DNA of 64,000 nt from a virus. Both the position numbers and the translations under genes were made by a program. Shown here piece after piece: positions 1,568 through 63,663 of the stretch (positions within the stretch are counted from its first letter, which is position 1; every line of letters begins with the position of its first letter). The stretch lies in the IMG/VR virus record IMGVR_UViG_3300045988_184219. The stretch is one strand, 5' to 3'. Under the pieces are notes generated by a model that did no database searches, had not been told where the DNA came from, and was given only the letters and a program-made list of their open reading frames with translations.

Positions 1568-1830
1568 TTTTCACTCTCCGTTTCCTTGTTTAACAACTCT
1601 TTCGATGTATTTATTATATAGCTTTTTACGTAGCGAGACTGAGAAAACCTGCGAGATGGCGGGTTTTCTTTCGTTTTTTGTGGATCGCGACGGGAGAACG
1701 TTTTCCTTTGGTCTATCAACTCCACTCAGTGAGAAAACATAAACTTCATCAAAATTTTTCCTTTGGCGCATAAAAAAGAACCACCTTCCAAGGAAGATGA
1801 TTCTTTTGAGAGAAGACGCTCGCTCAGAAA

Positions 1831-3385: not shown

Positions 3386-3581
3386 TTTTTTGTTTCTTCC
3401 TTTCTGTTTAGGTGTCTTTCAAACAACTCATCTGATGTTTATATTATAGTATATTCGATAGGCCAAAGAGAAGAAATTCGTTGAAAACGTTGGTTTTTCT
3501 CTCGATGGTAGGTCACTTGGGAGGAGGAGAGGGTAGACCAAAGGGAATGAGTCATTAAGATTTTCTCTTTGGTCTATAAAC

Positions 3582-3926: not shown

Positions 3927-4166
3927 GTTTTGTCCTTCTTTCTGTTTGAGACAATAACTCAAGCGGCTGTTCTGATGTTTTTATTATATAACAAAATTGA
4001 GGTATGGGCGGGTGTTTTTGGTAGACGACAGGGAGAAATTAAACGGATTAACATAATTAACAGAGAAGAGTTAATTGAGTTAATTGAGTTAATTCCGTTT
4101 CCTTTGGTCTATAAAAAGAAAAGACTGTAAGCCATCGCCCACAATCTTTTCCTTTGGCACATCAGA

Positions 4167-6141: not shown

Positions 6142-6187
6142 TTTAGATAGACCAAAGGAAAAGACGGTAAGGAACTTTTTACCACAT

Positions 6188-7674: not shown

Positions 7675-7706
7675 GTTTCAATCCGCGCACCCGCGTAAGG
7701 TGCGAT
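7675..7706 (-). repeat. solitary CRISPR-like repeat unit (type I-C-like): minus strand ATCGCACCTTACGCGGGTGCGCGGATTGAAAC
   Basis: Close to the I-C repeat consensus GTCGCGCCCCGCACGGGCGCGTGGATTGAAAC, with hairpin plus GGATTGAAAC handle; no adjacent spacer or cas. Confidence 0.55.
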
Positions 7707-8044
7707 GGCAACACATAGCCAGATTCGCCAGTCCCAAGCACTCACCCATCCACTCAGTGTACAAAATCGACATTATTTTGAGAATCCGTTTCCACTTACG
7801 CATCCTTGCGTCCGTCCTCTCCGAGAGAAATGGTGCCGATTTTATGATCACTTGAGGTTCGCACTCGGACCGTTTACTTTGGCATATCTCACCGTCATTT
7901 GTGTTGCGGTTGTAAATTTTCGGTCGCCCCGCCCAACGACCTTCTTTTAGTCTATCGCGTCACCCAACCAAGCGACGGATTCGACCTTGCTAGACAATCA
8001 ATCGCCTCACCGCACCTTTCCTTTGGTCTATCAACAAAACATCA
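7707..8044 (-). other. conserved ~330-nt leader-like element abutting the CRISPR-like repeat (copy 1 of 3)
   Basis: Begins GGCAACACATAG; long near-identical blocks shared with 22093..22433 and 62271..62602. Confidence 0.5.
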
Positions 8045-8097
8045 ATTAAAAAAAAGTGTAGCACATTTTAAAAATATTTTTCTCCAAAAAACGAAAA

Positions 8098-8312
8098 CGC
8101 CTCGCCATATCTGACAGGGCATTTTCAAGGTGAAGGTGATCCAAAGATGGCTTCAGATGGTTACAGAAAAAGCGAGAAAGGTTCGCAAATGCCGAAGCAT
8201 GTCTGGAAGGGACGCTCTGGATGTTTGTCCGTTCTACTCATATTATACAACAAATCAAACATCTTCGAGACCACCTACGACGAACACACTAAAACGCCGC
8301 TGTCCCTTTAAC
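8098..8312 (-). ncRNA. candidate ncRNA cassette E1 (GGATGGTTACAGA...TTCGAGACCACCTACGAC family)
   Basis: ORF-free; promoter-box variant CAATTAAATTTTATCAC at 8313-8335; hairpin CGCCATATCTGACAGGGC at the 3' end; paralogs E3-E5. Confidence 0.4.
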
Positions 8313-8361
8313 AATTAAATTTTATCACAAAAAACAAATTTTGCAACAGCCATCATCTAAA

Positions 8362-8915
8362 ACGAAAACACCCCGCCATTGCTGACGGGGAGTCTTCGCT
8401 ATATGGAGATAGTCCTTCGGATGGTTACGGTGGGTTAAGTAGAGTCATGCACCCCACGACTAAAGCCGGGGTTTGTCCCAGCCGACACGCTTCCGAGCGA
8501 TGCGAGGTTCAGACGGTTGAGAGGGAAAGACCCTCCCGACCTCCCTTCGGTGGGCGGAACATAAGTGGCATGACAGCGCCCCGTGCAACGCAGGTCATGC
8601 CTACGTTGCCACATTTTTCAACGAGTGCCTTTGCGCTAAATTCTGCGCCTACAACGGTTCTCTCGTTGCTTAAATTGTACCGTTTTTCAAGGAGATTTTC
8701 AACAACTTTTAAGAAAACATCCTCGAAAAGTAAAGTTTGACCGCGCCGATTCCTCCACATGCCTGAAGGAAGGGGCTTCCTCGGCGATTGAGGTGAGTTT
8801 GGTAAGTCATCTTCTTCAAGGAGTGTGCCACTATGACGAAATGGGCAAAACCGACCGAGAAGGACGCTCTGTGTACAAGACACAAGAGACCACCCGCGAC
8901 TCAATGGAAAGCCAC
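8362..8915 (-). ncRNA. candidate ncRNA cassette E2 (contains the 77-nt block shared with 46456..46532)
   Basis: GC-rich; terminator CCCCGCCATTGCTGACGGGG + T-tract at 8365-8395; the overlapping ORF 8509..8943 has no SD. Confidence 0.35.
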
Positions 8916-8997
8916 TGTCCCTCTTATACTTTGAGTATAACATAAACGATTATATTTTTCAACATATTTTTCCTCTTGAACAATTAACAAAAGAAAA

Positions 8998-9192
8998 AGA
9001 AACCACCCTAGCCAAATAGACTAAGGTGGTTTTCGAAGGAGAAAACATTTTTTGGATGGTTGCAGAGCGGAAAGTAACGGTCTGGAAGAGATGCTCTTGA
9101 TGTTTTTTTGATGCAATCATGATCTTTGTTTTTTAACATCTTCGAGACCACCAACGACGTATATGGTTAGCAAAACGCCGTTATCTCTTTAA
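8998..9192 (-). ncRNA. candidate ncRNA cassette E3
   Basis: GGATGGTTGCAGAGCGG ... CTTCGAGACCACCAACGAC; promoter-box variant at 9193-9215; hairpin AAACCACC..GGTGGTTTT at 9000-9035. Confidence 0.4.
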
Positions 9193-9237
9193 CAATTAAA
9201 TTTTATCACAAAAAAGGTTGTTTTACAATACATCAAT

Positions 9238-9470
9238 TAACCAAAACAAAAGCGCCCCACCATTTCTGGCAGGACGCGGACGGAGTAGTCCTTTCGGGAT
9301 GGTTGCAGAGAGGGTTATCAATCCGACAAAAGAAGACCTGTCTGGAGGGAACGCTCTGAGCACCTGCTAGGCACAACACGCAGTCACGCCATGATGCTTT
9401 CGAGACCACCCACGACGAATTATGTCAGTCGCCGCTGTTCCCATGACATATAAAGTATATCAAAAACCAC
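9238..9470 (-). ncRNA. candidate ncRNA cassette E4
   Basis: CGCCCCACCATTTCTGGCAGG ... GGATGGTTGCAGAGAGG ... TTTCGAGACCACCCACGAC; ORF-free. Confidence 0.4.
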
Positions 9471-9598
9471 TTTTGTTTTCAACAATTTCTTGTTCTCGCA
9501 AAAAAACAAAATTATCTCTCACAAAAATCTAAAATCACCTTTCCATCCTTGTCAAGATGCCAAATTTTTCCATAGATAAAATTCAAATAGTTCTCCTC

Positions 9599-11762: not shown

Positions 11763-11956
11763 AATAAACCTCCATTTCTGCGGGCTTCCTATAACCCGCC
11801 TACAAAATTAACTAATAATAGTATACATTTCCTACAATCTAAACGCAAAATAAAGCCCCCGACATAAAGCGAGGACTTTATCGTTAGAACAAAAAATTAA
11901 GTTCCAATCATTTTCCTTTGGTCTATCAACAAACATTCAAATCACGCCACTCAAGT

Positions 11957-16465: not shown

Positions 16466-16891
16466 CTATTTAAACACATTTATAGACAAAAAACGAGAAA
16501 TGCAAACAGAAGCATCACACAACGGAATAACTCGCAACCAAACAGATTTCAACCCCTTCGACACCTCAACTGCAACATCATCACTATCGAAAACACGAAG
16601 CGAAAGAAGGCTATCGTCAACCTCAACACTGTAAGTCAAAACGTCTCCAACAACAGGAAAGGTGCGAAAACGAATATTTTTTCCACCAACCAAAACGTTA
16701 ACTACACACTCAGTAAGCTCATCAGAGATAGCGACAATAGTTTTTTGAACCGCAGAGGAAACGGATTCTTTATCACATTCTGCTCTTGCAATTTCAACAT
16801 AATTCCCTCCTGTTCGGCAACCGCAAGAAACGATTTTTTCAATAGAAAGTCCTTTGAGTTGATTGATGATTTCATTTTTGATTATATCCAT
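16466..16891 (-). CDS. paralog family E protein (141 aa; start at MDIIKNE with SD)
   Basis: SD AGAAAGAAGG before ATG 16891; GGKNIRFRTFPVVGDVLTYSVEV. Confidence 0.6.
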   Translation of the reverse strand: MDIIKNEIINQLKGLSIEKIVSCGCRTGGNYVEIARAECDKESVSSAVQKTIVAISDELTECVVNVLVGGKNIRFRTFPVVGDVLTYSVEVDDSLLSLRVFDSDDVAVEVSKGLKSVWLRVIPLCDASVCISRFLSINVFK

Positions 16892-18850: not shown

Positions 18851-18968
18851 GGTTGTAATTCCTTTCTTTTATAGTTTTTTTTAATTATAACACAGTGTTG
18901 GAAACGAGTCGATAATTTGACCAAAAGAAAAACGACTCAGGTTTGTGTGTCGCCTTTTAATTGAACTA

Positions 18969-19004
18969 CCCACGACTGAAGTCACGGGAGTGCGCGGGGA
19001 TTTT
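18969..19004. repeat. GC-rich 35-nt element CCACGACTGAAGTCACGGGAGTGCGCGGGGATTTT (copy 1)
   Basis: Near-identical copy at 24726..24760 in the TnpB 5' leader; GCGCGGGGATTTT core also in the large ncRNAs (6965, 37065, 46430). Confidence 0.5.
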
Positions 19005-19464: not shown

Positions 19465-19759
19465 TGTGAACCGACCTTTCTAACCACGTAAAACAACCAA
19501 CCACCAATTACGGGAAATCAACCTTTTGTAGTTTTATTATATAACTTTATTTAGACATAGGGGGAGTTTTCTCTGGAAAAGCAAAATTATTTTTTCGAAA
19601 AGAAGAAACGCTTTAACATTTTCCTTTTGGCACATCAACATCTTAAACGCCACACGCATGAAATCTATTGTCTCAAAGAAGGGGTTGTTAATAAATTGTT
19701 TCTACAACACAAACAAAAAAGACCTGTCACAAAGCAACAGGTCTTGAAAACGAATCAAC

Positions 19760-20656
19760 TTAGCTCTGAGAATAAGGAATCGTCTCATCACTGACAACAA
19801 ACGTCAGTTCATCTCCATCCGCATAAGTGCGGTTGATAACATAGCCGTTCAAAATTCTTCCTGAACTACCATCTGTGTGGTTCACAAAAGAGATCTCGTT
19901 GGGAGCTTTGTCATCATACGAGAACGAAAGGTTTGTAAAATCGGTTGGTGACTTAGCCCCACACATACGCGCTACCCACGCATTGTTAACCGCATCAGGG
20001 ACAAGTTCACCATAGTAGTCCTCACGAAGATCAGGGTACGGCTCAAGCTCAGGGCGAACCTTTCCGCCGACATAACTCATCTCATCGCGCATAGCATACG
20101 GGGACGGGTACTTGAATACCTTAGAGCCGTCCGCAGACACATAACTCTCAATCCCAGTCACACACTTAGCGACCGTGCCACCGTTCTCATCCTCACTCAC
20201 GTCGAGATCAAAGTTGCAAATCTCTCGCGGATCAGTCACAACAAGGTTGTCATGAGAGGCAAGATCGAGATGAAGGTCAAACTTGCAGAACGACTCCTTA
20301 TTGCCAGCGGCGAGACACTTGGAGGTAGTTTCCGCAACATTGGAGCACTTTCCATTCTCGCATACTTTCACATCGCCGAATGCAACGACTTCCATGTCTG
20401 CATCAGCCTTCTTCATCTTGTCCTTGTAACTCTGGCTAATGCGGTCAGCGGAATACTCACACGTTCCATCACAAACGTAAGGCTTTGCGTTCTTCGCGGG
20501 GCGCTTGTACTTTCCGTTGATATGATGTTCAACCTCAAGTTCAGCCGCCTTTTCAAAAGCGGTATCTGTGGATGTGCCAGAGGAGGCAAAGCTCACACTT
20601 GTTCCACCAATAACGATAAGACTTGCTACGGCGAAAGACTTCATAATGTTTTTCAT
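19760..20656 (-). CDS. secreted cysteine-rich protein (299 aa, signal peptide)
   Basis: N-term MKNIMKSFAVASLIVIGGTSVSFASSG after SD AAAGAAAGGAAG; multiple Cys pairs; hairpin terminator 19720-19755. Confidence 0.6.
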   Translation of the reverse strand: MKNIMKSFAVASLIVIGGTSVSFASSGTSTDTAFEKAAELEVEHHINGKYKRPAKNAKPYVCDGTCEYSADRISQSYKDKMKKADADMEVVAFGDVKVCENGKCSNVAETTSKCLAAGNKESFCKFDLHLDLASHDNLVVTDPREICNFDLDVSEDENGGTVAKCVTGIESYVSADGSKVFKYPSPYAMRDEMSYVGGKVRPELEPYPDLREDYYGELVPDAVNNAWVARMCGAKSPTDFTNLSFSYDDKAPNEISFVNHTDGSSGRILNGYVINRTYADGDELTFVVSDETIPYSQS

Positions 20657-21719: not shown

Positions 21720-22076
21720 TTACTTGCGATGGGAATGAGAGATTACCTCATCCAACATAATTACAAGCCAGTCAGGTTTGTTCGTCAGCCTATTGGTCAA
21801 GTGTTCAAGAGAGGCCACTTGTTGCGGGGAGGAAAGTGTGTGATGTTTAACAATCAGAGTTAGCCCACGAACGAGAGCTGTGAGACGTTCGTGGGGAGGC
21901 TTATGCGATTGGACGTTATTGATAAGTGTATCAATTTGCTCGTTGACAAGTTTTTGTTGTTCAACCTGCCAAGTCGCAACCTCTCGTTGAGCGTCAGCAA
22001 GATGACGGCTTTTGGATATGTTTGGGGTTTTCAAAGAGAACACCTTCTTTTTGGCGATGGGTTTCAATCCGCGCAC
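21720..22076 (-). CDS. doubtful ORF (118 aa, no ATG start, no SD), runs into the CRISPR-like repeat
   Basis: Only a GTG start inside the repeat; no cassette. Confidence 0.2.
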   Translation of the reverse strand: MRGLKPIAKKKVFSLKTPNISKSRHLADAQREVATWQVEQQKLVNEQIDTLINNVQSHKPPHERLTALVRGLTLIVKHHTLSSPQQVASLEHLTNRLTNKPDWLVIMLDEVISHSHRK

Positions 22077-22092
22077 CTACAATAGGTACGAT
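22061..22092 (-). repeat. solitary CRISPR-like repeat unit (type I-C-like): minus strand ATCGTACCTATTGTAGGTGCGCGGATTGAAAC
   Basis: Same GCGGATTGAAAC handle and a compensated hairpin as at 7675 and 62075-62270. Confidence 0.5.
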
Positions 22093-22433
22093 GGCAACAC
22101 ATAGAAAGATTCGCCCGTTCCGAGTGCCTTCCACTCCACACAGATCACAAAATCGACGTATTTTAGGGAATCTATTCCCACTATCGCATCCTTGCGACCC
22201 TTCTCGATGAGAGGAAACGAGTCGATTTTATGTTCACTTGAGGTTCACACTCAGACGTTTTCTTTGGCATATCCAACGATTATTTGTGTCGCGGTTGTAA
22301 ATTTTCGGTCGTCCGCGCAAAACGACCTTCTTTTGACCAAATTCACGTCACCCAACCAAACGCCGGGTTCGACCTTACCACACAATCAATCCTCTCACCA
22401 CACCTTTCCTTTAGGCTATCAACAAGACTTCAT
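22093..22433 (-). other. conserved ~330-nt leader-like element (copy 2 of 3)
   Basis: GGCAACACATAG ... CGCATCCTTGCGACC ... GCGGTTGTAAATTTTCGGTCG ... shared with 7707..8044 and 62271..62602. Confidence 0.5.
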
Positions 22434-22529
22434 TTACAGAAAGTGTAACACATATTAAAAATTATTGTTCTGCAAAAAGAAAAACACCTGTCAAGCAAGT
22501 GTTTTTCAAGGAAGAGATTTGAGAAAGAA

Positions 22530-24621: not shown

Positions 24622-24725
24622 TTGGTCAATCCACCTCCTTTTATCTCAAAACTTCATTGTTATTATAACATTTTCTCTATCGAAAATCTACCGATTTTCG
24701 AAGACTTTCCTTTTTACCCGCTATC

Positions 24726-24760
24726 CAACGACTGAGGTCACGGGTGTGCGCGGGGGATTT
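24726..24760. repeat. GC-rich 35-nt element (copy 2) in the tnpB 5' leader
   Basis: CAACGACTGAGGTCACGGGTGTGCGCGGGGGATTT, near-identical to 18969..19004. Confidence 0.5.
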
Positions 24761-26424: not shown

Positions 26425-26934
26425 TCAAAACCGCTTGATTACCTTATGGGTGCAACCAATCGCGGCAATCATAGATCTCAAGTGTTTACGAACAAGAGTG
26501 TTTGTCATCTCTGCTCCGCACACCTTGTGGTGTTCATCAACAAAAGGTGCATTGACATCCCACCTATCGCCGTAGAACCCACCATTATTATTTTTTACCG
26601 CGCTAACTCGCAGAACAAGTGGTTTAGGATTGGATGCTAAGGAGAAAACAATGCAGAAAGACTGAGTTCCTTTGCGCCAATCGACTCGAACATTCTCATT
26701 CTTTCTTCCGACGAGCTCAAAAGACCAATCTCGATCAAGCGAACCTGCGGGAGAATGTTTGAGGAATGCTCCAAAATCCTTAATTGGATTGTCTTTTGGG
26801 GAGAATGCGAGCGCTCCAACATGTTCCGCATAAGCATCAGCGTCAGCCCCGATAAACGAGCCACTGAACTTATCTGGCATGAGGGATGGAACAGCAAGGA
26901 GATTGTAGATCGTTTTCTGGAATTTTCTCATCAA
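26425..26934 (-). CDS. hypothetical protein (169 aa)
   Basis: ORF overlapping the upstream gene by 4 nt (operon). Confidence 0.55.
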   Translation of the reverse strand: MMRKFQKTIYNLLAVPSLMPDKFSGSFIGADADAYAEHVGALAFSPKDNPIKDFGAFLKHSPAGSLDRDWSFELVGRKNENVRVDWRKGTQSFCIVFSLASNPKPLVLRVSAVKNNNGGFYGDRWDVNAPFVDEHHKVCGAEMTNTLVRKHLRSMIAAIGCTHKVIKRF

Positions 26935-27422
26935 ATACCAACCTTTCTATCTTCCATAAGCTGAACATTTTCCGAAACAAAGTTCCGAAAATATTCGATG
27001 GCGTTATCTCCATCCCGGAAAGAGAATGTACGCTTATCGCCAAAACTCTTCGTGACATCAACCCAATCTTTATGGACGACAAGACGAATTTTCCGCTCCG
27101 TACTCGGACATTCAACAGCAACGTCGTAGTAACCCAAAAAGTTGGGATGGATTGCGATCTGGACAGCCTTTGCGTACTTTGCATGACCTTCATTTGAAAA
27201 GAAAATTGTCACACCAAAGTGTTTGTTATTAAATGCAGCCATAAGCTGTCCGCGCAATTTGTGGAACTTCTCGCTCACATCCTCGCCACGCTCGATCTCA
27301 GCAAAACTAACATTAAGTGCTGTATCACTACCGTGGACGCGGAACGCAGGGAAGTCGAGCTCCATAATCGCGTCAATGATGTAAGGTGCGATGCGAGAAG
27401 GATGGATGTGTTCTTTGTTCAT
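26931..27422 (-). CDS. hypothetical protein (163 aa)
   Basis: SD AGAAAGGAAAACAT before ATG; cassette block 27455-27495. Confidence 0.55.
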   Translation of the reverse strand: MNKEHIHPSRIAPYIIDAIMELDFPAFRVHGSDTALNVSFAEIERGEDVSEKFHKLRGQLMAAFNNKHFGVTIFFSNEGHAKYAKAVQIAIHPNFLGYYDVAVECPSTERKIRLVVHKDWVDVTKSFGDKRTFSFRDGDNAIEYFRNFVSENVQLMEDRKVGI

Positions 27423-27680
27423 GATATGTTTTCCTTTCTGTTTTTGTCTTGATGTTGACGATCAACAACTTTTGATGGATTTATTATATAATAAAATGTA
27501 GAGCAGGGATAGAGTTTTTTGGTTGGTCGAGTTTGTTTGTTGAGTTGTTGTTGGTGTTGGACGGCGGTTTTCTTGATAGATCAAAGGAAAAATGTCGTTG
27601 GATTGAGGGGTTCTAATTCCAAACGGCACATATTTTTTCCTTTTGGCTAATTGTCAGAAAACGAATCTACGCATCGTAGG

Positions 27681-27735: not shown

Positions 27736-28359
27736 ATGGAAGATGGCACAAACAAAACAACAGTTTTAACAAAAGAAGAATGTATAAAACTTAGAAAAGA
27801 ATTGCTAGGGGAAGAAGAAATAAATTTTCAAACATTTATTAAAAGCCGTTTAACCGAATTAAACCTACAACAAAAACACCTAGCAGATATGTGCAACGTA
27901 AGCGATAAGACAATTTCTAAGTGGTGTTCTGGAAGGGGGCTTCCCGACATAATGATGATTCCTGTTTTGGCAGAGACATTAGATGTTTCAATACATGCGA
28001 TTACAAACTCCATTTTTGGAATTCGAGATTATTATACGGTTGATGATTTAACTTCGAGAGCTATTTTAGATGGAGTGATAAAAGAAAAGAACGAATTTCC
28101 TGATGCAGATTGTATAGCGGGAGCTTTTATTGGAAAAAGTGAATATAACCTATATTTACTCTTAAAACACATATATAAAACAAATGGTGTAGAATATACG
28201 ATTAACGATTTTCTCAAAAGTGATGAGTTTCGTCGGATTTGTTCAATTAAGCGTATAGCAGTATTGCAAAAGGTGTTCATGTGGTTCCAGAACGTCAAGA
28301 TCTATAATTGGGATAAAGAAAGAGATTTTGAGTTTAGAAAAGAGGTTAAAGTAAAATGA
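27736..28359 (+). CDS. XRE-family helix-turn-helix transcriptional regulator (207 aa)
   Basis: HTH LTELNLQQKHLADMCNVSDKTISKWCSG; low-GC codon usage unlike its neighbours; opposite strand. Confidence 0.7.
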   Translation: MEDGTNKTTVLTKEECIKLRKELLGEEEINFQTFIKSRLTELNLQQKHLADMCNVSDKTISKWCSGRGLPDIMMIPVLAETLDVSIHAITNSIFGIRDYYTVDDLTSRAILDGVIKEKNEFPDADCIAGAFIGKSEYNLYLLLKHIYKTNGVEYTINDFLKSDEFRRICSIKRIAVLQKVFMWFQNVKIYNWDKERDFEFRKEVKVK

Positions 28360-29644: not shown

Positions 29645-29689
29645 AGTTGTACCTTTGCCTTTCTTTTGCAGAAAAATTTTCTCGGAGAT

Positions 29690-30160
29690 AATCTCTCCCT
29701 CTCAATAGAGAGCGGACACAAAACCGCGTTTTGGTCACTCTTTTTAAATTAGAAGTTAATTAAGATTTTTCTCGTCATTAACACCTTCTTTTTGATACCA
29801 AACTTTAACTGATTAGTTTCTATCCCCCTTTCAATAGAGTGCAGATAGATAAGTCGGTTTTGGTCACTCTTTTTTGATGAAAGTTCGATTAGGTTTTTGA
29901 ATGACCACGTTTTTAATAACTTTTTCCTCCTTTCAATAGATGTAGACATTAACAAGCGTTTTGGTCACTCCATTTCAAAAAAATTTTTTAAAAGTTCTTT
30001 TGATAGACCAAAGGGAAATCTGTAAGTGGATTCTCCTTCCTATAATAAAGAGGACATTGATAGGTGGTTTGGACACCTGTTTTTGAAAATTTTTCTATAA
30101 AAATTTCCCCTCTACTATTGAAAGGACAGAAATCATCAATCTTAGCGGATTTTTTGCAAT
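29690..30160. repeat. tandem array of 4-5 imperfect ~110-bp direct repeats (CTTTCAATAGAG...GTTTTGGTCACTC + T-tract)
   Basis: Units starting ~29697, 29825, 29928, 30036, plus an inverted-looking unit ~30105; each contains 2-3 small hairpins; no ORF. Confidence 0.55.
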
Positions 30161-30222
30161 TTATTTTTGGAAACAAAAAAAGAAGCCCTAAACAGGACTT
30201 CTTTTTCTTTTGTATCATCCGA

Positions 30223-35438: not shown

Positions 35439-35580
35439 TTTAGATCCTTTCTTTTTTCTTCCAACAACTTTTGTATCTTTATTATATAACTTTTCGCTAG
35501 ACCAAAAGAGAAAAACGGCACAACCGTGAGTTTTCTTTCTCGACGGGATGTGTCGTTTTTGAGTTAAGTGTCCCTTTAGG

Positions 35581-35910
35581 TTATTTCAATTTGGCAAACG
35601 AGAGGTAGAAATCCTCATAGTCATCAACGAGGTCAATCATCGCCACAGAATCCAAATCACCATCATGTGCATGAAGGCAACAATGTTCATAAGCAAGCTT
35701 GAATGCTCGTTCAAGAACCTCAACGTTCTGCGTTTTGGAGTCCAAAAGGAGAAGGTCGATGATTCTATTTAGTCTTTCACGGCGAGCATGTTCGTACCGA
35801 CTAACTTCATCAGGATAGTTCGGACGCACCCCCCAACGGAGCACATCACTATAGCAACGAAGGCAGTGGTCGAATTTGCGGGCATTTTCTTCTTGCTCAA
35901 TCTTTCTCAC
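35581..35910 (-). CDS. hypothetical protein (109 aa)
   Basis: ORF with SD AAGAAGGTTTC. Confidence 0.5.
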   Translation of the reverse strand: MRKIEQEENARKFDHCLRCYSDVLRWGVRPNYPDEVSRYEHARRERLNRIIDLLLLDSKTQNVEVLERAFKLAYEHCCLHAHDGDLDSVAMIDLVDDYEDFYLSFAKLK

Positions 35911-36399: not shown

Positions 36400-36480
36400 T
36401 AATTGGATTAACTCAATTAACAGAGTCTTGTTAATTGAGTTAATCGAGTCAACAAGGTCAACAAGGTCAACAAGGTCAAC
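36400..36480. repeat. AT-rich 17-bp-arm palindrome (GATTAACTCAATTAACA..TGTTAATTGAGTTAATC) followed by GTCAACAAG x4
   Basis: Occupies the position normally taken by the GC hairpin terminator; related TTAATTGAG tandem at 4040-4095. Confidence 0.5.
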
Positions 36481-36499
36481 AATCTTCCCCTTTGGGCTA

Positions 36500-37232
36500 T
36501 AAAAAATGAAAACGCCCTGCGACAAGCACAGGACGTTCTCTCGAACACTTTCCACACAATAAGTCACGGGATCATCCCCCTCGGGATTCAACGGCAACTC
36601 ATTGTACTGCAACCACCGATGTTCACACGGCTGGTATCATCATCCTCGCGCCCCACAACGAGGAAACCACAAGATTTTGGGGCAATATTTGACGGCACTC
36701 GCACCACCTCTAGCCACGCGTGATTTGCAGTTACGAGCGACTTGTCGGGACGTATCTTCGCGGCGGGGTCAACGGGTGTTATGCCCTCTCCCACCATCCA
36801 GTCCACCATCCACTCCTCTTGTGCGTGGTTAGCCGTCATGAGGTCTTTGCGACGTAATGTATGTTATCAGCCGTAGTTTAGGGAGATTGCACTCCGAATC
36901 AGTCTATCACATCGGACGTTTACCCGCCATCATGGTTGCTTCTCCTCTCTAGGTCTTTCAAGCTCTTTTTTCAAAGTAGGGCTGTTTCCCGCTTATCCGA
37001 ATTCTCGCGAAGCCCTTATATCACCCGCCGCACCCCACCATCGGAGTACGTCTAGCACGCGGGGATTTTAACATTGTTTAGGCGGTCGAGGTTGCTCGCG
37101 GAGGTCGATTTCCACGTCCTCGGGAGAGACTCTCAACAGGTGTCTAGCGTTCCTCATGTGCGCCGCTTTAGCTGCGCGGAGTTGCGTCAACCTGCCTGAG
37201 CCGCCTACCAACTTTTCGTCGGTGTCCCTCTC
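36500..37232 (-). ncRNA. candidate large (~730 nt) structured ncRNA, copy 2
   Basis: Paralog of 6436..7155: shared blocks GGTTAGCCGTCATGAGGTCTTTGCGACGTAAT and GTCTAGCACGCGGGGATTTTAACATTGTTTAGGCGG; promoter box 37238-37250; terminator 36510-36545. Confidence 0.5.
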
Positions 37233-37365
37233 GATGGTTTTATTATAGCAGGTTCAAACGAGAATGTGGAGAATTTTTGTTGAGTCGAAGGTTTTTCTTT
37301 TTCGAGAGAGGTGGGAGGTGTCGGGAACCAGTTTCTTTGGCTTATCCTATCCGACTTAACCGACT

Positions 37366-37394
37366 ATGACGGGCGACTTTCCAGACTACATAAT
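37366..37394 (+). promoter_or_regulatory. sigma-70-like promoter on + strand (TATGAC-18-CATAAT)
   Basis: Related to 7375 and 58868; downstream ~85 nt conserved with the 58897 region. Confidence 0.45.
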
Positions 37395-37825
37395 CCACAC
37401 CATCTCAGACAAACCTTTCCCTTGGTCTATCCACAAAAAAACGGCGCACCTGCCACATAACGAGCACGCCGAAATAGTTTCAAAACCCATACACAAATGT
37501 GACAAGGTTAAGTTTGCAGAGCACCGAACGCTTGACTGAGGAGCGCCCGAAGGTTCTCCACGCGTTCACGAACGGGTCATACTGGCGCAACTACGACGCC
37601 CCTACACGCGCACTTTCTTACGTTTCTGCACGCTTACTTTTGCGAGTTTTTATACTCCGACTTTTCTCGTTTGTCGCGCATACCGTCCCATCCTTCTTTT
37701 CGACAAGGCGAACTCGCTTGCGTTTAGTATAACAAAACTTTGCTCGTTTGTCAATAAAAATTTACGTTTGTTTAATGGTTAAGTGAAGTTTTACAATACG
37801 CCTAACAACAAACAATCCCCTTGGT

Positions 37826-39054: not shown

Positions 39055-39259
39055 TTTTTGTGTCCTTTCTGTTTGTCATTTGCTTAACCAACTCTTGATG
39101 GGTTTATTATATAACTTTTGAAACGATAGTGTATGTGTTTTTGTGTGGAGTGCGTAGAATATGCCAAAGGAAAAAATGGCGGTTGTCGATAGGTTTTGTT
39201 CCTGCCGAAGTGTACCGCCATCCGTTTTGTTCCTTTGGTTTATCTATTCGCTCAACAAA

Positions 39260-43409: not shown

Positions 43410-43476
43410 GCTACATTTTCCTTTCTAATTCATAAAATCATTAAAGATTTTAATAAAAAACGGTAAATTTCATTAT

Positions 43477-44823
43477 TCACGCGGACTCCCGACGAGGCGA
43501 GTCTGTTGGACGAGCAGCCAAACCAGCACAGGCGATCCTTGTCGGCGCTACCATAATCGGGCGTAGCACAACGCCCTCTATCCCGTCGGCAAACGCGTTC
43601 GGGACTACTTTTTTCACGATCTGCAACGCTCCGTTTACGTCCGCATTCACGCGTGTTCCGTCGTTTGAACGGAATAATCCTCGATGAATACGACGCTTTT
43701 TGTTGTAAAATTCGCGTGTCGGGGGCTCTCCGTCCAGAAATGATGTACCGCTCGTATAGCTTTCTTCTGTTACGACAACAGCTATACCATGTTCATACGC
43801 TTTGTACTCGATCATTTCTATCAATCGGGCGAACGGGAGTCCTACAAAATGCTGGTTCTCCTTCGCCGTGAACGGGGTGCGCTCCTTCCAGTCGCGGTTT
43901 AGACCAATGATAAGTGTCGGAATATTCTGTGCGACGAGGCGATCTACGATGAGGCGCGAGGTCTTGTGCAGGTAATCCTTGAGTTTTGCGTTCCTTTTGT
44001 CAATCAGGCGTTGGATTCTCCGCGTCACTTTCCTCCCATTGAGGTGCTCCGACATCTCACGGAGAGACGCCAAACGCTTGTTGTAGAACTGGTTGATCGA
44101 CTTCGGGATGCGACCGTTTACGATGATCGGAGCGTCCCCCGTGGAGAACGCCATCGTAACGAAGTTGTTTACGCCGAGGTCAATTCCTGCGTATCTCCCG
44201 TTGGGCTTTCTCTGAGGAACTTCCTTGATTCTGTAAACGATTTCAAGGGTGATGAACCCTCCGTGCGGGACAAATCGAACCTGTTGAAACGACTTTATTT
44301 CACGAGGGCTGTTAGTGTCCTCGCGGATGAACTGCGGCTCAACCGTGAACCCCTTGAAAACTTTTGGAAACACGATTTTTCCATCCCGAATTTTACACTC
44401 TTGACTCGTTAAAGTTAGAACGTGCTTTCCATCCTTCTTTAGAAAATGAGGCGGTTTCGGACGACCCTTATACTTTTCAGGGTGCTTTTTCCAATCTTTA
44501 AGTTCTTCCCAAAAACTTTTCCAGTCTGTCACGAGCAAGCGTAAATTCTGCTGTGCGCTCTGTGCCGTCGGCATGTTCCGATAGTCGGGAAAGTCCGTTT
44601 TCGACTTCAGGATTTTGTCAAGTTGTTCATAACTCGACTGTTTCTCGTGCGCGAAAAACTGTTGCCGAAGTAGATAATTCCCTTGATTATAAAGGTTTTT
44701 TGACATGTGACAAAACTCCGCGAGCATTTCATACGCGGGGTGAGTCTCCTTGATGATGTGTTGCTCCACGCGAACAAAGGGATCTTTCTTTTTCTTCGTT
44801 TTTGGCTTTTCTTCCGTTTTCAC
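43477..44823 (-). CDS. TnpB-derived protein lacking zinc finger and RuvC-II Glu (possible nuclease-dead, TldR-like)
   Basis: RuvC-I GIDLGVNN present, DYLHK block aligns with the intact TnpB, RuvC-II position reads IIGLN (no Glu), YTSGTSFLDG replaces the CxxC zinc finger, NADVNGALQI retained; ~200 aa N-terminal extension; standard cassette promoter at 44878-44900; only 67 nt to the next gene. Confidence 0.6.
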   Translation of the reverse strand: MKTEEKPKTKKKKDPFVRVEQHIIKETHPAYEMLAEFCHMSKNLYNQGNYLLRQQFFAHEKQSSYEQLDKILKSKTDFPDYRNMPTAQSAQQNLRLLVTDWKSFWEELKDWKKHPEKYKGRPKPPHFLKKDGKHVLTLTSQECKIRDGKIVFPKVFKGFTVEPQFIREDTNSPREIKSFQQVRFVPHGGFITLEIVYRIKEVPQRKPNGRYAGIDLGVNNFVTMAFSTGDAPIIVNGRIPKSINQFYNKRLASLREMSEHLNGRKVTRRIQRLIDKRNAKLKDYLHKTSRLIVDRLVAQNIPTLIIGLNRDWKERTPFTAKENQHFVGLPFARLIEMIEYKAYEHGIAVVVTEESYTSGTSFLDGEPPTREFYNKKRRIHRGLFRSNDGTRVNADVNGALQIVKKVVPNAFADGIEGVVLRPIMVAPTRIACAGLAARPTDSPRRESA

Positions 44824-45209
44824 TGGGACGTTCCTCCTTTCCAGTGTTCTCTTTGGTCTATTTAAGACGCAATCTCGATGTATTTATTATATAACTTTTC
44901 GACAGACCAAAAGGAGAAATCGGCACGTATCGCAAGTTTTCTTTTTTAACAATACATGCCAACTTCGACCGATTCCTCCACACGCCTAAAGACGGGGGCT
45001 TTCTCGGCGTTTGTGGTGATGTTTTCGGTAGGGTAGCGCATAATCGGCATTATTCTTCCTCCTTGTAGAAGACAATGTTTTCGACAGGATGTCGTTTGAT
45101 GTGTTTATTATATAGCTTTATAGATGAAGATGTGCGGGTTTTATGTTTTTTGGAATAAGAAAAATAGACCAAGAGGATTAGTTACAACATTTCCTTTGGT
45201 CTATTTTTA

Positions 45210-45567
45210 TCAGGCAGCCTTCTCAGCGAACGCCGCATCCTGCGCCATCACCATAAGTCGCTCTATGGTAATGACACGCTTCAAAAACTCTTCCGCACCA
45301 ATCTCATCGCCATCATAATTCACCCCGAATAAGAAATACTTGCTAAGAACGGAGCCAACCGCCTTATAAGCCAAAAACTTCCCTCTCGCGAGAGAGTGAA
45401 ATCCAAGAACTCGCCAGACATAAATGACTATCTCTGCACGAATACGGGCGAGCTTCTTCTCATAGATAGCCACAACCGAATTATCGGTGATATGGTTAAT
45501 CAACTCTCTCTGGTTTATCCAGTAGGAGGAAAGAGCCGACTGAAGATCCTCATAGTTACCAATCATA
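45210..45567 (-). CDS. paralog family G protein (119 aa; start at MIGNYEDLQ)
   Basis: SD AAGGAAAGGATGG before ATG 45567. Confidence 0.6.
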
Positions 45568-45697: not shown

Positions 45698-46189
45698 TTA
45701 AACTTTTCCGTAGTTGTTGACGATCTTCTCCACCTTATTTTGAATCTGCACCATCATCTTGAGCAATCCACAGTAGATGTAGTCATGCGCCTTCACCAAG
45801 TCTGTATCATCAACATCCGCCTCAACCTCTACCATCACGCTCCCGTTCGAGTAGATGGCAAAAACATCCTTTACGTTCTCTAACACATAAACAGGAAGAG
45901 GAATGTTCGTGTACTTGCGGACACCATAAAGAACCGAACGAGCACATTCCTCCTCAAACTCCGTGTTGATATGAATTGCGAGGCTGATGTTATCCATCGA
46001 ATTCCAAAGACCATCCAAACTCTGCCACTTAAGGCTGTTCTTCCACCCGAGGTGAACCTCTATCTCGTCTTCGGTGAGAGAAGGGAAAACTCCCGCAAGA
46101 ACCTTCTCGATGTACTTGTGCCCCTCACAAAGCGCCGCCTCAAGCTGCGTGCAATCACGGAATTCACCATAATTTTCCATTTTGTACAA
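45698..46189 (-). CDS. hypothetical protein (163 aa)
   Basis: SD AAAAGAAAGG before ATG; cassette block 46215-46240. Confidence 0.55.
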   Translation of the reverse strand: MYKMENYGEFRDCTQLEAALCEGHKYIEKVLAGVFPSLTEDEIEVHLGWKNSLKWQSLDGLWNSMDNISLAIHINTEFEEECARSVLYGVRKYTNIPLPVYVLENVKDVFAIYSNGSVMVEVEADVDDTDLVKAHDYIYCGLLKMMVQIQNKVEKIVNNYGKV

Positions 46190-46274
46190 ACCTTTCTTTT
46201 AAAACCGACTAAACTCCATTGATATATTTATTATATAACTTTTGCATACGAAGATAAGAAAAACGAGCAGACTC

Positions 46275-46690
46275 AGCGCTTTCTTTACGCTGTTTTTGCT
46301 CGTTTTCCTTTGGCTTACAACGCCGATTTTGTAACTCCCAAGTCCATTATGGCAAGGGAGATAGCACCTCGCGCTTCCGAATTGTCGCGAGAGCCGATTA
46401 TTTCCACCCGCCCGCACCTTTCGGCACGATCTAGCGCGCGGGGGATTTACTTAGTCATGCACCCCACGACTAAAGCTAGGGGCTTGTCCCAGCCGACACG
46501 CTTCCGAGCGATGCGAGGTTCAGACGGTTGAGAAGGAGAACGGGGCTCAATTTGCGAGTTGGTTTAGAAAGGAGGCTTTTCCCCGCACACAGTAAAAGCG
46601 GGAATTCATGGAAACCGAGGCTGTGCCCCGCCGAGCCGACATGCCGACGGAAGCCACCCCTAGCTGACAGCCGCATTCTTCGCAGCTACT
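46275..46690 (-). ncRNA. candidate mosaic ncRNA cassette (shares 77-nt block with 8447-8523, GCGCGGGGGATTT module and CCUCCUUUCUAAACC tail)
   Basis: ORF-free GC-rich; promoter-box variant CACATTATAGCGCAAC ~46715; hairpin + T-tract terminator 46270-46305. Confidence 0.4.
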
Positions 46691-46849
46691 TGAGCACCAT
46701 CGTCCGTGCCATCAGCTATGTTCACATTATAGCGCAACAGGAAGGTGCGTGGGGAGAAAAAGAGAAAACGGTAGAAAAGTTTTTTGATTTTCAACAAAAG
46801 CCCCTTCCCAATAACGGAAGTCTTTTCCTTTGGCATATTTTACAAAAGA

Positions 46850-48424: not shown

Positions 48425-49045
48425 TCAATCATCAACAATCTCTCCATCCTCGCAACACATAACGTTGCGCTCAACAAGGTACGCGTGTATGGTAGCACGG
48501 TAGTACGAATCGAGCACAAAATCCTCAGAAACCTTCTGTGCGATGACATCAATCTTTCTAGCATATCCCGTCAGGATATTCTGTATCTCTGCGATTGTTT
48601 CGTCCTCCAACCCAGCACATGCTTCAACCTTAGCGATACACACACCACCGATTGCGCGGATTGTAACAGACCGAATGAGTTTGAGTTCGAATTCGTTGCG
48701 AACTCCCAAAAAGCGAAACTGCGAAAGAAAGTTCACAATCGCATCCTCTTGGTCTATTGAGATTGCGAGGGAAGAAATGACATGCGGGATATTATATCGG
48801 TCAAACTCCTCAAAAAGCACCTTAGATCGCACGAAAGACTCATTGATGGAACAACGAGAAACGATTGCGTTTGCGACGCATTCAGCCGCATTTTTGAGTT
48901 GTTCTTGTAGGTAGTCCAGACTCTCGCGCAAATTGTACTGCGCCATAATTTGTGCATCCTCCGATAGTTGTGTGTAGGGCACGATAACATCGTCCTCGGG
49001 CATCCAGTTTTCGTCGTCTGTGTATTTGTCTGTCATACCTATCAT
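48425..49045 (-). CDS. paralog family C protein (206 aa)
   Basis: N-term YTQLSEDAQIMAQYNL, C-term YLVERNVMCCEDGEIVDD. Confidence 0.65.
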   Translation of the reverse strand: MIGMTDKYTDDENWMPEDDVIVPYTQLSEDAQIMAQYNLRESLDYLQEQLKNAAECVANAIVSRCSINESFVRSKVLFEEFDRYNIPHVISSLAISIDQEDAIVNFLSQFRFLGVRNEFELKLIRSVTIRAIGGVCIAKVEACAGLEDETIAEIQNILTGYARKIDVIAQKVSEDFVLDSYYRATIHAYLVERNVMCCEDGEIVDD

Positions 49046-49116
49046 CCTTTCTTGTTATAGCAAAGAGATTGTTTGCTTTATTGTATAACATTTTGGCAGT
49101 AGAAACTTGCTTTTTA

Positions 49117-49180
49117 GATAGACCAAAGGAAAAACGGCACAAATCGTGAGGTTTTCTCCTCAACGATATGTGCCGTTCTT
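49117..49180 (-). terminator. representative cassette terminator: GATAGACCAAAGGAAAA + hairpin AACGGCAC(A)...GTGCCGTT + T-tract
   Basis: 8-bp outer stem with an inner CGTGAGG/CCTCA(A)CG stem; on the minus transcript the hairpin is followed by UUUUUCCUUUGGUCUAUC. Confidence 0.55.
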
Positions 49181-49238: not shown

Positions 49239-49514
49239 TCAGTCTTTGTACCAAACATCGTCATATAGCATCTCGATGTTTGCATAGTCCATATATCTAT
49301 TGAGGGCGCAAATACCGCGACTCCGCACAACCTCACGAGCGTAATCATCGTCCACAAGCAGACCGACCCGATCTCTGTGATCGAGAATCTGACAAAGAGC
49401 ATCGTCAAAAACATCGCCAGAATCGTCTGCGCGTACGTCCGAGAAAGCGTATGCGATGCGCTCCTCACCGTGGATTTTGTGTTCCAATGGGAAGATTTTT
49501 ACAAGATAAATCAT
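49239..49514 (-). CDS. paralog family A protein (91 aa; start at MIYLVKIFPLEH)
   Basis: SD AAAAGGAAAGG before ATG 49514. Confidence 0.6.
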   Translation of the reverse strand: MIYLVKIFPLEHKIHGEERIAYAFSDVRADDSGDVFDDALCQILDHRDRVGLLVDDDYAREVVRSRGICALNRYMDYANIEMLYDDVWYKD

Positions 49515-52297: not shown

Positions 52298-52459
52298 TTG
52301 AAATCCTCCTGTTCTCAAAAACAACAAAACTCTTTTTCTATTATAAGTATTTTCTCTTTCTCCATCAACACAAACCAACAACCATCCACACACTTTCTCA
52401 AAAAAAAAGAAAAGACCATTAAAAGCAATAACTTCCTTTGGTCTATCAACAATTTCAAC

Positions 52460-54193: not shown

Positions 54194-54452
54194 GTGGAGA
54201 ACGGGTCCCCTTTCTATTTTAATTGATGTATTTATTATATAACTTTTTTCGTCGTTTCGTTAAAATTTCTTGATATGCCAAAGAAAAAGGTTGGCGAGGA
54301 GGCGTTCTGTTTCAAGAGTGATTGGATGGCGGTGAGGAAGATTTTCCTTTGGTCTATCAAAAAACAAAAAAGAAAATGCGCCAAGTTGTCCCAAGCGCAC
54401 AATTTTGTCCAATACTCTGTCCTATTTATCCTAGGAAAGAACTATATATGTC

Positions 54453-55638: not shown

Positions 55639-55896
55639 AACTTCCTTTCACATCAAGATGTTGGATGTATTTATTATATAATTTTTTCGAGAACTGGTTT
55701 TAAAAAAAAGAAAAAAACAATGAAAACCGTTGATCTTTTTGCAAATTTTTGTTCTAACCAACACTCATTTCGCTTTCAAGGTTTCAATCCGCACCCTCCA
55801 AATAAAGAGCGATAACAACATTCAGACTTGTCAAACATAAAACTAACAGAACTTAAAACAAAAGCGACAACCTAGAAAGGTCGCCGCCAATGTAAC

Positions 55897-57945: not shown

Positions 57946-58073
57946 GTTGATTTTCCTTTCTGATGTCATTAACTAACTTTGTGTATTTATTATATAACTT
58001 TATTATGTTTTGTGTGGAGTGTTTTCGATAGACCAAAGGAAAAGCGCACCCAATTTGAGTGCGCCATTTTTCC

Positions 58074-58652: not shown

Positions 58653-58867
58653 AATTTTTCTTCCTTTCTTTTCAACAACTCTTGATGTATTTATTATATA
58701 ACTTTTCTTAGAAGGATGAGCGTATTTTCAGTAGGGAAAGTTTTTTTTGAAAAGAAATGTTGTCTGAGATGTGTCCTTTAGTCTATTCGCTCAAACCTTT
58801 CCGACAAAAGCGACTAATCCGACTCAGATTTCCGACTCATCCGACTTTCTCGACAAAACCGACTACT

Positions 58868-58896
58868 TGACGGGCAACCTTCCAGACTACATAATC
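58868..58896 (+). promoter_or_regulatory. sigma-70 promoter on + strand (TTGACG-17-CATAAT), antisense to gene 58987..59592
   Basis: Third copy of the CGACTACTTGAC...GACTACATAATCCAC module; conserved ~85-nt downstream region shared with 37395-37480. Confidence 0.5.
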
Positions 58897-58986
58897 CACA
58901 CACTCTCAGTCACACTTTTCCCTTGGTCTATCCACACAAAAACAGCGCACCCGCCACATAACGAGTACGCCGAATATCGCTCTAAA

Positions 58987-59592: not shown

Positions 59593-59743
59593 GTTGTTTT
59601 TCCTTTCTGATTGTTCAACAACTCAACCGATGGTTTTATTATATAACTTTTTTAGATAAGCCAAAGGGAGAAAATGACGGGAGAGTGGTTTTTCTTTCCA
59701 CCGACACATCCCGCCATCCGTTTGTTTCCTTTGGGCTATCAGC

Positions 59744-61947: not shown

Positions 61948-62074
61948 TTTTTTCTATCCTTTCTGTGAGAGATCTTTTAACAACTCTTGATAGATTTATT
62001 ATATAGCTTTTTACTAGACCAAAAGAGAAAAACGACACGCGAACAAGATTTTGTTTCTTGTAGGTGTGTCGTTT

Positions 62075-62270
62075 GTTTCAATCCGCGCACTCCATACAGA
62101 GTGCGATTTTGCGCTCAATGGCTTTATTGTCTCTCAGGTTTCAATCCGCGCACCCACGAAGGGTGCGATGGGCATAATTTCAACCCACACTACCTATACG
62201 GGTAGTGTTCTCTTTACACTGAGCACAATAGAATCGGGTTTCAATCCGCACGCCCTATACGGGGCGTGAT
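62075..62270 (-). CRISPR. mini CRISPR-like array, type I-C-like repeats: R1 62075-62107, spacer 62108-62137 (30 nt), R2 62138-62169, degenerate repeat ~62178-62207, spacer ~62208-62237, R3 62238-62270 (leader-proximal)
   Basis: Minus-strand repeats ATCGCACTCTGTATGGAGTGCGCGGATTGAAAC / ATCGCACCCTTCGTGGGTGCGCGGATTGAAAC / ATCACGCCCCGTATAGGGCGTGCGGATTGAAAC; constant GCGGATTGAAAC handle, hairpin stems kept by compensatory changes; no cas genes in the window. Confidence 0.55.
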
Positions 62271-62602
62271 GGCAACACATAGCAAAATTAACCAAATCCG
62301 CGCACTCACTACTCCACTCACCCATCAAAATCGACGTAATTTAGGAAATCCATTCCCGATCACGCATCCTTGCGTCGATCCTCTCCGAGAGAAACGTGTC
62401 GATTTTATGTTCGTTTAGGATTCGCACTAAAACTGTCCTTTGGCTAATCCAACCGTCATTTTTGTGTTGCGGTTGCAAGATTTCGGTCGCCACCGCCAAA
62501 CGACCTTCTTTTGGTCAAATTCACGTCGCCCAACCAAGCGACGGGTTCGACCTTGCTAGACAATCAACGGTCTCACCGAACCTTTCCCATTGGTCTATTA
62601 AC
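62271..62602 (-). other. conserved ~330-nt leader-like element (copy 3 of 3) adjacent to the mini-array
   Basis: GGCAACACATAG ... CGCATCCTTGCGTCGATCCTCTCCGAGAGAAA ... GCGGTTGCAAGATTTCGGTCGCC ... shared with copies at 7707 and 22093. Confidence 0.5.
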
Positions 62603-62702
62603 AAAACATCATTTACAGAGAGTGTAGCACAGATTCAAAAGAGTTTCCTGCAAAAAAGAAAAACCAACACATGATTTTTAAAATATGTGTTGGTTCTCGA
62701 CA

Positions 62703-63481: not shown

Positions 63482-63663
63482 ATTTTATCAAACTCGCTTT
63501 CCAAATCAACATTCAACAATTTAACTTACATTTTTATTATATAACTTTATTAAGCGACAAACACGCAAAAACACGGTAGGGCGCAAACTTTCTTTTTGTC
63601 AGCGCACCACCGCTAACCGTTCCGTTCCTTTGGTCTATCTAAAATAACAATCCAACCAAAGCC

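Follow-up and report, generated by a model that had tools for sequence, protein, structure and literature searches.

Here we describe a short recurrent motif in a 64,000-nucleotide stretch of the IMG/VR virus record IMGVR_UViG_3300045988_184219 (the whole stretch is hereafter the window), and tentatively propose that a sequence-specific DNA-binding protein, itself a product of the element, recognizes this motif on duplex DNA at the boundaries of gene cassettes. The motif is asymmetric, 13-17 bases in length, has the form GATA-NN-CCAAAGG(AAAA), and occurs in about 60 copies between single-gene units, as arms of two orientations, A and B. From the enrichment of the motif, its intergenic placement, a rule of orientation, the independent conservation of the arms and the lack of covariation between them, we infer a protein reader, its action on DNA and its role there.

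A search of both strands with GATAGACCAAAGG, allowing two or fewer mismatches, recovered 56 matches as against 1.44 +/- 1.21 in shuffled sequence, bearing out the claim of the initial annotation of the window that the motif is abundant, present in both orientations and tied to hairpins. The bipartite form N-ATA-NN-CCAAAGG with at most one mismatch yielded 65 matches (3.7 expected), and the excess persists at three mismatches (30 observed, 18 expected); we therefore put the size of the family at about 70. We describe the site as bipartite, GATA-NN-CCAAAGG, because positions 5-6 of GATAGACC are free to vary (GA, AG, TG, AA, GC), and its logo reaches out to TTTT-CCTTTGGTCTATC-N-A. The earlier suggestion of a palindromic site bound by a dimer is thus retained with respect to the candidate DNA-binding protein and dropped with respect to the palindrome and the dimer, the site being asymmetric and bipartite. 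About 90% of the copies are intergenic, with a density roughly 18-fold greater in spacers than in genes; since only 5-6 copies lie within genes in a window that is about 68% coding, the motif is not equally frequent in coding sequence. On the coding strand there are 43 A sites and 22 B sites (bipartite form), and in both orientations alike the CCAAAGG end always faces the stem-loop. Over 60 nt, sequence on the T-rich side of the motif folds with a mean of -11.5 kcal/mol, as opposed to -5.8 on the opposite side and -9.5 for the background. When the sites are anchored on an exact CCAAAGG, the conservation of the distal block is G60 A84 T96 A84 in one orientation and G71 A65 T76 A82 in the other; such equal conservation of the distal GATA is the expectation for a duplex DNA site, which it fits better than a one-strand RNA element. 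The motif is also found away from terminators, shortly downstream of promoters, in the 5' untranslated region (UTR) of tnpB, in CRISPR leaders and in a + strand promoter repeat.

Examination of the spacers revealed a recurrent order of elements, namely a stop codon, arm A (GATAGACCAAAGG-AAAA), a stem-loop, a U-tract, arm B (CCTTTGGTCTATC), the promoter GTTATATAATAAA, a ribosome-binding site and the next gene. In the sense direction the A arms begin 4-30 nt past the upstream stop codon, and in three cases (627, 16458 and 37818) the TAG of the motif is itself that stop codon; the B arms come after the U-run. A given stem-loop may have the motif on one side or on both. The promoter, AAAA-GTTATATAATAAA-tacATCaagAGTTGTTgaa, is present in 41 copies on the sense strand, and no consistent -35 box precedes GTTATATAAT in these copies. 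Arm B was considered as a -35 element and rejected, as its TTGGTC would give a 13-nt spacer and its distance to the -10 box ranges from 5 to 47 nt. The sequences upstream of the promoter align as a single family, comprising in the 5' half (G/A)ATAGACCAAAGGAAAA, a variable 5' stem and the purine-rich loop (G)AAAGAAAAC, and in the 3' half a variable 3' stem, GTTTTTCTC, TTTGGTCTATC, (g/t)AAAA and GTTATATAAT. These units display the features of intrinsic bidirectional terminators, that is, a stable stem-loop with a U-run and an upstream A-run, as well as those of a PeSL-type cassette, that is, a repeated unit of stem-loop, sigma-70-like promoter and Shine-Dalgarno sequence ahead of orphan genes. 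The calls of our home-made terminator finder (134, over-permissive) served only for reading examples.

The locus that first drew attention, 49117-49180, illustrates this order with a single arm. It was read on the - strand because nearly all genes of the window lie on that strand; in this direction the stop codon of gene 49239-49514 is followed by 60 nt, a hairpin, TTT, CCTTTGGTCTATC, 27 nt, GTTATACAATAAA, the ribosome-binding site AGAAAGGA and the ATG of gene 48425-49036. The perfect B-orientation arm (49117..49129, - strand), reading CCTTTGGTCTATC in the sense direction, lies 3-4 nt past the hairpin and U-run and is the sole arm here; two inverted arms had been annotated, where we find one arm and one hairpin, with the partner arm absent. 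The + strand shows GATAGACCAAAGG at 49117-49129; next come AAAAA and a 48-nt imperfect hairpin (49131-49178). The latter is the terminator stem-loop AACGGCACATATCGTTGAGGAGAAAACCTCACGATTTGTGCCGTT followed by TTT (49131..49178, - strand; dG -25.9 and -28.1), downstream of gene 49239-49514, and the promoter core GTTATACAATAAA (49077..49089, - strand), one of the 41 copies of GTTATATAATAAA, drives gene 48425-49036.

Comparison with related loci points to conservation of the arms. A global alignment of 19 orthologous spacers, window versus L029, L025 and L112, gave 86.1% identity for the arms (n=208) against 72.3% for the other spacer sequence (n=2899), with the ribosome-binding site at 92.9% and the promoter core GTTATATAATAAA (e.g. 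49077-49089 and 59635-59647, - strand) at 99.4%. Conservation so strict hints that the promoter core is not just an ordinary sigma-A -10 box of the host. In BLAST-aligned blocks, the motif positions likewise showed 90.6% identity against 84.9% for intergenic and 85.2% for coding sequence. Upstream of the SNF2 helicase gene the arms and the promoter form islands of identity within a diverged spacer, and a perfect single A arm 13 nt past the helicase stop codon (52435..52447, - strand) is kept at the orthologous place in L029 and L032 though the sequence that follows differs; in L032, whose helicase shares 68% protein identity, the TAG of the motif serves as the stop codon. On the evidence available, the arms appear to be functional and each to be conserved independently. 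Every close relative (L029-L032, L025 and L114-L117) has a motif density of 0.6-1.0 per kb. The motif is absent from more distant helicase relatives (54-58% protein identity), which use perfect bidirectional terminators of the form AAAAAGAGAGC-loop-GCTCTCTTTTT. A search for the exact 17-mer in 185,579 GTDB species genomes returned 66 single matches, which is the chance level, and the motif is therefore no host-genome word. An exact 16-mer scan of IMG/VR gave single matches only, one of them in a true relative, and a helicase search in the same database gave distant relatives only; the contig index has no entry for the SNF2 protein itself. Judged by its distribution among the relatives and in GTDB, the motif is an innovation of this element group.

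A potential reader of the motif is encoded by gene 27736..28359 (+), the only well-supported + strand gene with a recognizable domain. Its 207-amino-acid product contains an N-terminal helix-turn-helix (HTH) domain of the HTH_3 family and a C-terminal weak homeodomain-like match with WFQN, in a stretch, VFMWFQNVKIYNW, that gives weak homeodomain matches to PDB (E-values 0.2-0.9). The protein family is limited to this element group. The HTH gene (+) and gene 26931-27422 (-) diverge from a control region that shows 92% conservation across four relatives and holds, about 150 nt upstream of the HTH gene, a cassette (27575..27651, - strand) with a near-perfect motif; in L116 and L117, an A-orientation copy lies past the HTH gene's own stop codon, on the + strand. 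The putative protein would bind the asymmetric site as a monomer or by means of two linked domains, and might act as a polar insulator or global silencer at cassette boundaries, either by blocking polymerases that leave the stem-loop region or, alternatively, by occluding the promoter where arm B falls at about -34 to -22. Such an action would parallel that of the mycobacteriophage stoperators and of the SPBRE/MrpR system of SPbeta.

Several observations weigh against the proposal of a protein-bound DNA site. The position of the arm is fixed relative to the stem-loop and not the promoter (B to -10 box 5-47 nt, without helical phasing), and therefore indicates a terminator-linked role; the inner parts of the arms (AAAGGAAAA / TTTTCCTTT) are also the A-tract and U-tract of a bidirectional terminator. 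The purine-rich loop GAAAGAAAAC, found strand-specifically in 22 of the 41 promoter-linked cassettes, hints at recognition at the RNA level. The orientation of the sites relative to transcription is merely biased (43 versus 22), unlike the uniform orientation of stoperators, and shared ancestry of the cassettes, combined with gene conversion, could make them look more conserved than they are. With respect to the candidate protein, a Pfam HTH_3 match, PDB E-values of 0.2-0.9 and an AlphaFold model with a pLDDT of 47.6, too poor for a fold search, make it a possible lead and nothing more.

The alternatives are best weighed against the gene content and turnover of the element. A simple gene call based on codon usage and ribosome-binding sites gave about 85 genes with a mean length of about 150 amino acids, nearly all of them - strand genes preceded by strong AGAAAGGA-type ribosome-binding sites, which suggest a host of the Firmicutes type (Bacillota). 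Pfam recovered 18 families across the 85 proteins, including SNF2 helicase, C5-methylase, two TnpB, SPFH, NADAR, AAA_33, DUF4314 and HTH, as well as a weak kinase match; thus, most proteins lack a Pfam match. PHROGs adds RNA-ligase and polynucleotide-kinase families. The window contains no tRNAs and, over its whole length, no Rfam 15 match at gathering score. A blastn search with 8 kb against phage and plasmid collections found no match, and close relatives were found only as metagenome contigs (179, 252, 305 and 356 kb) and one 145-kb IMG/VR viral contig, so that the element, viral per its IMG/VR flag, must be very large and uncultivated. We best explain the window as a hyperplastic region in a phage-like element of very large size, whose genes, mostly orphans, are each a transcription unit of their own. 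In the distant loci L033 and L034 we observed SSB, dUTPase and a Y1 transposase with TnpB, and in L034 also a plasmid-type replication initiator (Rep_3); plasmid-like replicons may therefore belong to the wider family.

Relatives at 85-90% DNA identity differ by many single-gene insertions and deletions, including that of the helicase itself, and cassette-level shuffling is clear. This raises the rather unlikely alternative that the arms and short blocks are PeSL-like recombination linkers, i.e. homology patches for swapping single-gene units with no dedicated binding factor, for which the PeSLs of T4-type phages offer a precedent (PMC2839356, PMC4122927). Thirty-one of 46 homology breakpoints are intergenic, as compared to an intergenic share of 32% of the window. 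Individual junctions map to the gap that separates the U-tract from arm B, to the very 3' end of A at either flank of an inserted gene (J4), to the 5' edge of A or 6 nt past A (L112 junctions 9933 and 9353) and to the conserved loop. However, only 3 of the 31 breakpoints fall 10 nt or less from the motif, where 2.3 are expected (p=0.42), the same test showed no excess near the promoter, and a 13-nt patch is short for homologous exchange. Moreover, such linkers would leave the strict stem-loop-facing orientation and the bipartite profile unexplained.

We also consider it unlikely that the motif is a nut/RAT-like element of nascent RNA, in which GAUAGACCAAAGGAAAA, 2-6 nt ahead of a purine-loop hairpin, would be read by an RNA-binding anti-terminator or termination factor to control read-through, the B arms being antisense-transcript sites or relics. 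The A orientation of two thirds of the sites on the coding strand, the strand-specific loop and the fixing of the arm by the hairpin instead of the promoter are in its favor, as is the hairpin directly behind the A arm in terminators, the tnpB 5' UTR and CRISPR leaders. In opposition to this, the B sites retain the whole motif, including the distal TATC, as well as the A sites do, and some B arms are perfect without an A partner (49117, 6146). The inner regions of 16 two-armed modules, drawn from the window and four related loci, are equally stable on both strands (-17.1 sense and -16.8 antisense, versus -8.9 kcal/mol for shuffles), and an RNA-binding protein was not found.

The mechanism initially put forward, or a plain terminator flank, in which pairing of the arms within the transcript would add about 13-17 bp to the stem for stronger termination or RNA stability, fares worse and appears quite unlikely. 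Inverted arm pairs are indeed present at 59655/59728 and 39158/39232, and in weaker form at 57228/57298 and 24811/24878, so that the perfect or near-perfect pairs annotated earlier do exist; they are rare nonetheless, with about 12 credible two-armed modules among roughly 60 sites in the window and mostly one good arm accompanied by one with 3-4 mismatches. Where both are present, the arms are 79% complementary and add -9.9 kcal/mol, versus -4.6 for shuffled arms, so they are able to pair, and their interiors correspond to the A-tract and U-tract mentioned above. Yet the covariation check proposed in the initial annotation found none: the arm helix was paired at 79.3% versus 81.3% when the 3' partners were shuffled among modules, 488 of 500 shuffles reached the observed value, and the covariation score lay under the shuffle mean. 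A separate count gave 10.05 pairs for cognate and 10.31 for non-cognate arms, in a comparison that pair selection biases downward. Variant arms such as GATAAACC and GGCATATT coexist in one module without compensating, and over half of the modules have positions 5-6 unpaired. No consensus emerged from RNAalifold on a MAFFT alignment of the 16 modules, as their stems do not line up; hence, the arm helix was tested directly. In addition, arm B starts past the U-tract and, as read from the sequence, would therefore be transcribed only upon read-through, leaving terminated transcripts without it, and the site flagged at the outset is one-armed. Our units do resemble bidirectional intrinsic terminators in their GC stem-loop, symmetric A-tract and U-tract and ability to fold on either strand, but the GATA-NN-CC extension past the tracts, conserved without a pairing partner, is part of no terminator model. 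Given that the arms do not covary, that B lies past the U-tract and that the distal block is kept partnerless, a terminator mechanism does not account for this conserved flank.

It is very unlikely, in our estimate, that the arm-stem-loop-arm units are the recombination sites of a novel integron-like gene-cassette platform, with a recombinase encoded outside the window moving single promoter-gene units in and out; if true, this would explain the start of the motif at the stop codon, the free center and the dozens of single-gene cassette differences at 85-90% identity. Finally, known kinds of mobile or site-specific element, namely miniature transposons with terminal inverted repeats (A-X-B units) or attC-like integron-type sites, are highly improbable: imperfect inverted arms do enclose a varying center (GC hairpin, AT-rich repeat, unstructured spacer, or tnpB in L032) and, as with attC, arm A stands at or a few nt from the stop codon, right behind short one-strand genes, but flanking direct repeats are 0-3 nt and mostly 0, as opposed to the target-site duplications expected of miniature inverted-repeat elements, the interiors are mutually non-homologous, most sites are one-armed, the arm consensus GATAGAC / GTCTATC does not match the attC core sites R'' RYYYAAC / R' GTTRRRY, the fully complementary consensus arms leave no extrahelical bases, nearly every gene has its own promoter where integron cassettes are promoter-less, and the 85 proteins include no integron integrase and, apart from TnpB, no integrase, resolvase or DDE domain.

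The individual arms and cassettes, all on the - strand, show considerable variation. The best two-armed cassette (59655..59740) combines A GATAGCCCAAAGG (59728-59740), a 60-nt stem-loop with the loop GAAAGAAAAAC and B CCTTTGGCTTATC (59655-59667), and its promoter begins 7 nt past the B arm. Another (39158..39244) has A GATAAACCAAAGG, a stem-loop of 61 nt and B CCTTTGGCATATT. In a third (54272..54358), a perfect A and B TCTTTGGCATATC enclose a 61-nt C-rich spacer without structure (inner dG -0.4), and between the window and L029 this spacer has diverged while the arms and promoter are kept. The cassette at 35496..35585 has a decayed A with four mismatches, a stem-loop and B CTTTTGGTCTAGC 5 nt ahead of GTTATATAAT, and in the two-armed cassette at 16389..16470 gene 16466-16891 takes its stop codon from the TAG in arm A (AATAGACC). 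Closer spacing is seen at 3532..3578, where A and B are separated by 21 nt and make a 10-bp hairpin by themselves, and at 45163..45205, where 17 nt lie between the arms, right behind the stop codon of gene 45210-45566. At 4020..4113, A and B surround an AT-rich inverted or tandem repeat (GAGTTAATT x3) that replaces the GC hairpin; such replacement, by the tandem 9-mers at 4068-4094 (GAGTTAATT x3) and 36448-36482 (GTCAACAAG x3.9) and by AT-rich inverted repeats, is seen in some cassettes, and TTAACTCAATTAACTC-type repeats are the commonest words in the distant relatives L033 and L034 too.

Perfect A arms further occur at 63627..63639 (25 nt past a stop codon, followed by a stem-loop, U-tract, promoter and a decayed B) and, as single arms, at 1705..1717 and 11915..11927, the latter 30 nt past a stop codon. 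Perfect B arms are found at 58027..58039, directly behind a terminator and 33 nt ahead of a promoter (13/13 in L029, 12/13 in L112), and at 6146..6158, behind a hairpin and 8 nt ahead of a TACAAT -10 box, upstream of a C5-methylase gene. A further perfect copy in B orientation (30002..30014) stands at the edge of an AT-rich spacer.

This spacer (29645-30222) is 580 nt in length with a GC content of about 0.35, lies at a sign change of the GC skew (26-30 kb), adjoins the only + strand genes, and may be an origin or iteron region. A tandem array of motif-bearing units had been placed at 29690-30160; TRF found no tandem array there, and we see three copies of GAGTGACCAAAAC-N20-CTATTGAAAGGRGG about 100 nt apart, having just the 7-mer in common with the motif. 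The earlier association with + strand promoters is upheld to the extent that a promoter-like TTGACG-17-CATAAT (+ strand, 58867-58895) lies 25 nt ahead of the motif at 58920 and recurs at 37419 and 7427, whereas the link itself comes down to the 7-mer and a separate three-copy repeat. This + strand repeat (7300-7440, 37300-37431 and 58790-58932) consists of TTGACR-17-CATAAT, the motif 25 nt later and several AGTCGG repeats; an antisense RNA gene is one possibility for it, a protein-binding array another.

An A-orientation copy (44850..44862, - strand) lies in the 5' UTR of tnpB (43477-44823), 20 nt past the promoter, and the tnpB of L032 is arranged alike. This gene (window 43410-44862) is an insertion relative to L029 13990-14050 and L112 11093-11143, with the left junction behind ...CTTAAATAG, within an A-like copy of the motif, and the tnpB genes have A upstream and B past the stop codon. 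Because of this junction and this flanking, we considered the motif as a TnpB target-adjacent motif and transposon end, which would account for 2-3 copies only. The large non-coding regions 36810-37310, 46181-46849 and ~6500-7200 (with pieces at 18930-19000 and 24700-24760) share AAATCCCCGCGYGCTAGA...GGTGCGGCGGGTG; their ends resemble TnpB guide-RNA scaffolds (...CCCGTGACTTCAGTCGTGGG...), and they may be stand-alone guide RNAs or remnants of insertion sequence (IS) elements. The region 6211-9598 comprises 3.4 kb without convincing genes, with repeated units of a promoter and structured RNA (GGGACAGCGGCG...GGTGGTCTCGAA...) closing in a terminator, for which Rfam gives no match.

A type I-C-like repeat, ATCGCACCCTTCGYGGGTGCGCGGATTGAAAC, occurs in mini-CRISPR arrays and as solitary copies at 61990-62663, 21990-22485, 7620-8097 and ~55750-55781, with equivalents in L029 at 1022-1704, 4811-5303 and 19727-20408, where two five-repeat arrays have spacers of 32-34 nt. 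Each unit stands behind a conserved leader of about 420 nt that holds the motif; a perfect A arm (8020..8032, - strand) lies about 20 nt inside such a leader, with equivalent copies at 22408 and 62587. The CRISPR spacers show no relation to the motif.

Among known systems, three more invite comparison. PeSLs are composite terminator/promoter cassettes in the hyperplastic regions of T4-type phages (PMC2839356, PMC4122927). Like the units described here, they number about one per small orphan gene, combine a stem-loop terminator with a strong sigma-70-like promoter and a Shine-Dalgarno sequence, and cluster in hyperplastic regions. Gene insertions and deletions between close relatives break at PeSLs; in the window most breakpoints are intergenic and several lie at conserved blocks, with no excess at the motif itself. 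In contrast to PeSLs, the stem-loop here precedes the promoter and has at its flanks a 13-17-nt inverted motif that descriptions of PeSLs lack, the promoter carries an extended -10 box that is invariant but no -35 box, and neither T4 core genes nor a blastn match in the phage collection were seen. The stoperators of cluster A mycobacteriophages, bound by repressors of the L5 gp71 type, are 13-bp asymmetric sites present in tens of copies in short spacers, and their repressor is a monomer that reads the asymmetric 13-mer with two DNA-binding domains in one chain (PMC9283540). The sites here are likewise asymmetric, of about 13 bp, intergenic and in tens of copies; however, the sequences are unrelated, the orientation is 2:1 and not uniform, the sites flank stem-loops, often as inverted pairs, and the repressor is only a candidate. 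SPBRE, a 15-bp repeated element of the Bacillus prophage SPbeta bound by the master repressor MrpR, was recognized in silico long before its binding protein (PMC10516654). It too is short, conserved and repeated in intergenic or promoter regions, in a large phage that infects a Gram-positive host, but has about 10 copies, all at promoters, whereas the present motif has about 60, mainly tied to terminators, and no MrpR-like gene was seen in the window.

The cassette architecture illustrates how hundreds of accessory genes, which probably serve counter-defence, are kept and exchanged by a huge mobile element; examples from the window are a NADAR-domain protein, polynucleotide kinase, RNA ligase, methylases, mini-CRISPR arrays and TnpB. 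Together with the invariant promoter, the motif provides practical markers to find this lineage in metagenomes and to delimit its gene cassettes. If the motif is indeed a protein-binding site, a single factor could insulate or silence about 60 or more orphan-gene units, each independent of the others, in an element no smaller than 356 kb, and stoperator-like global control would extend to a very different, uncultivated phage lineage.

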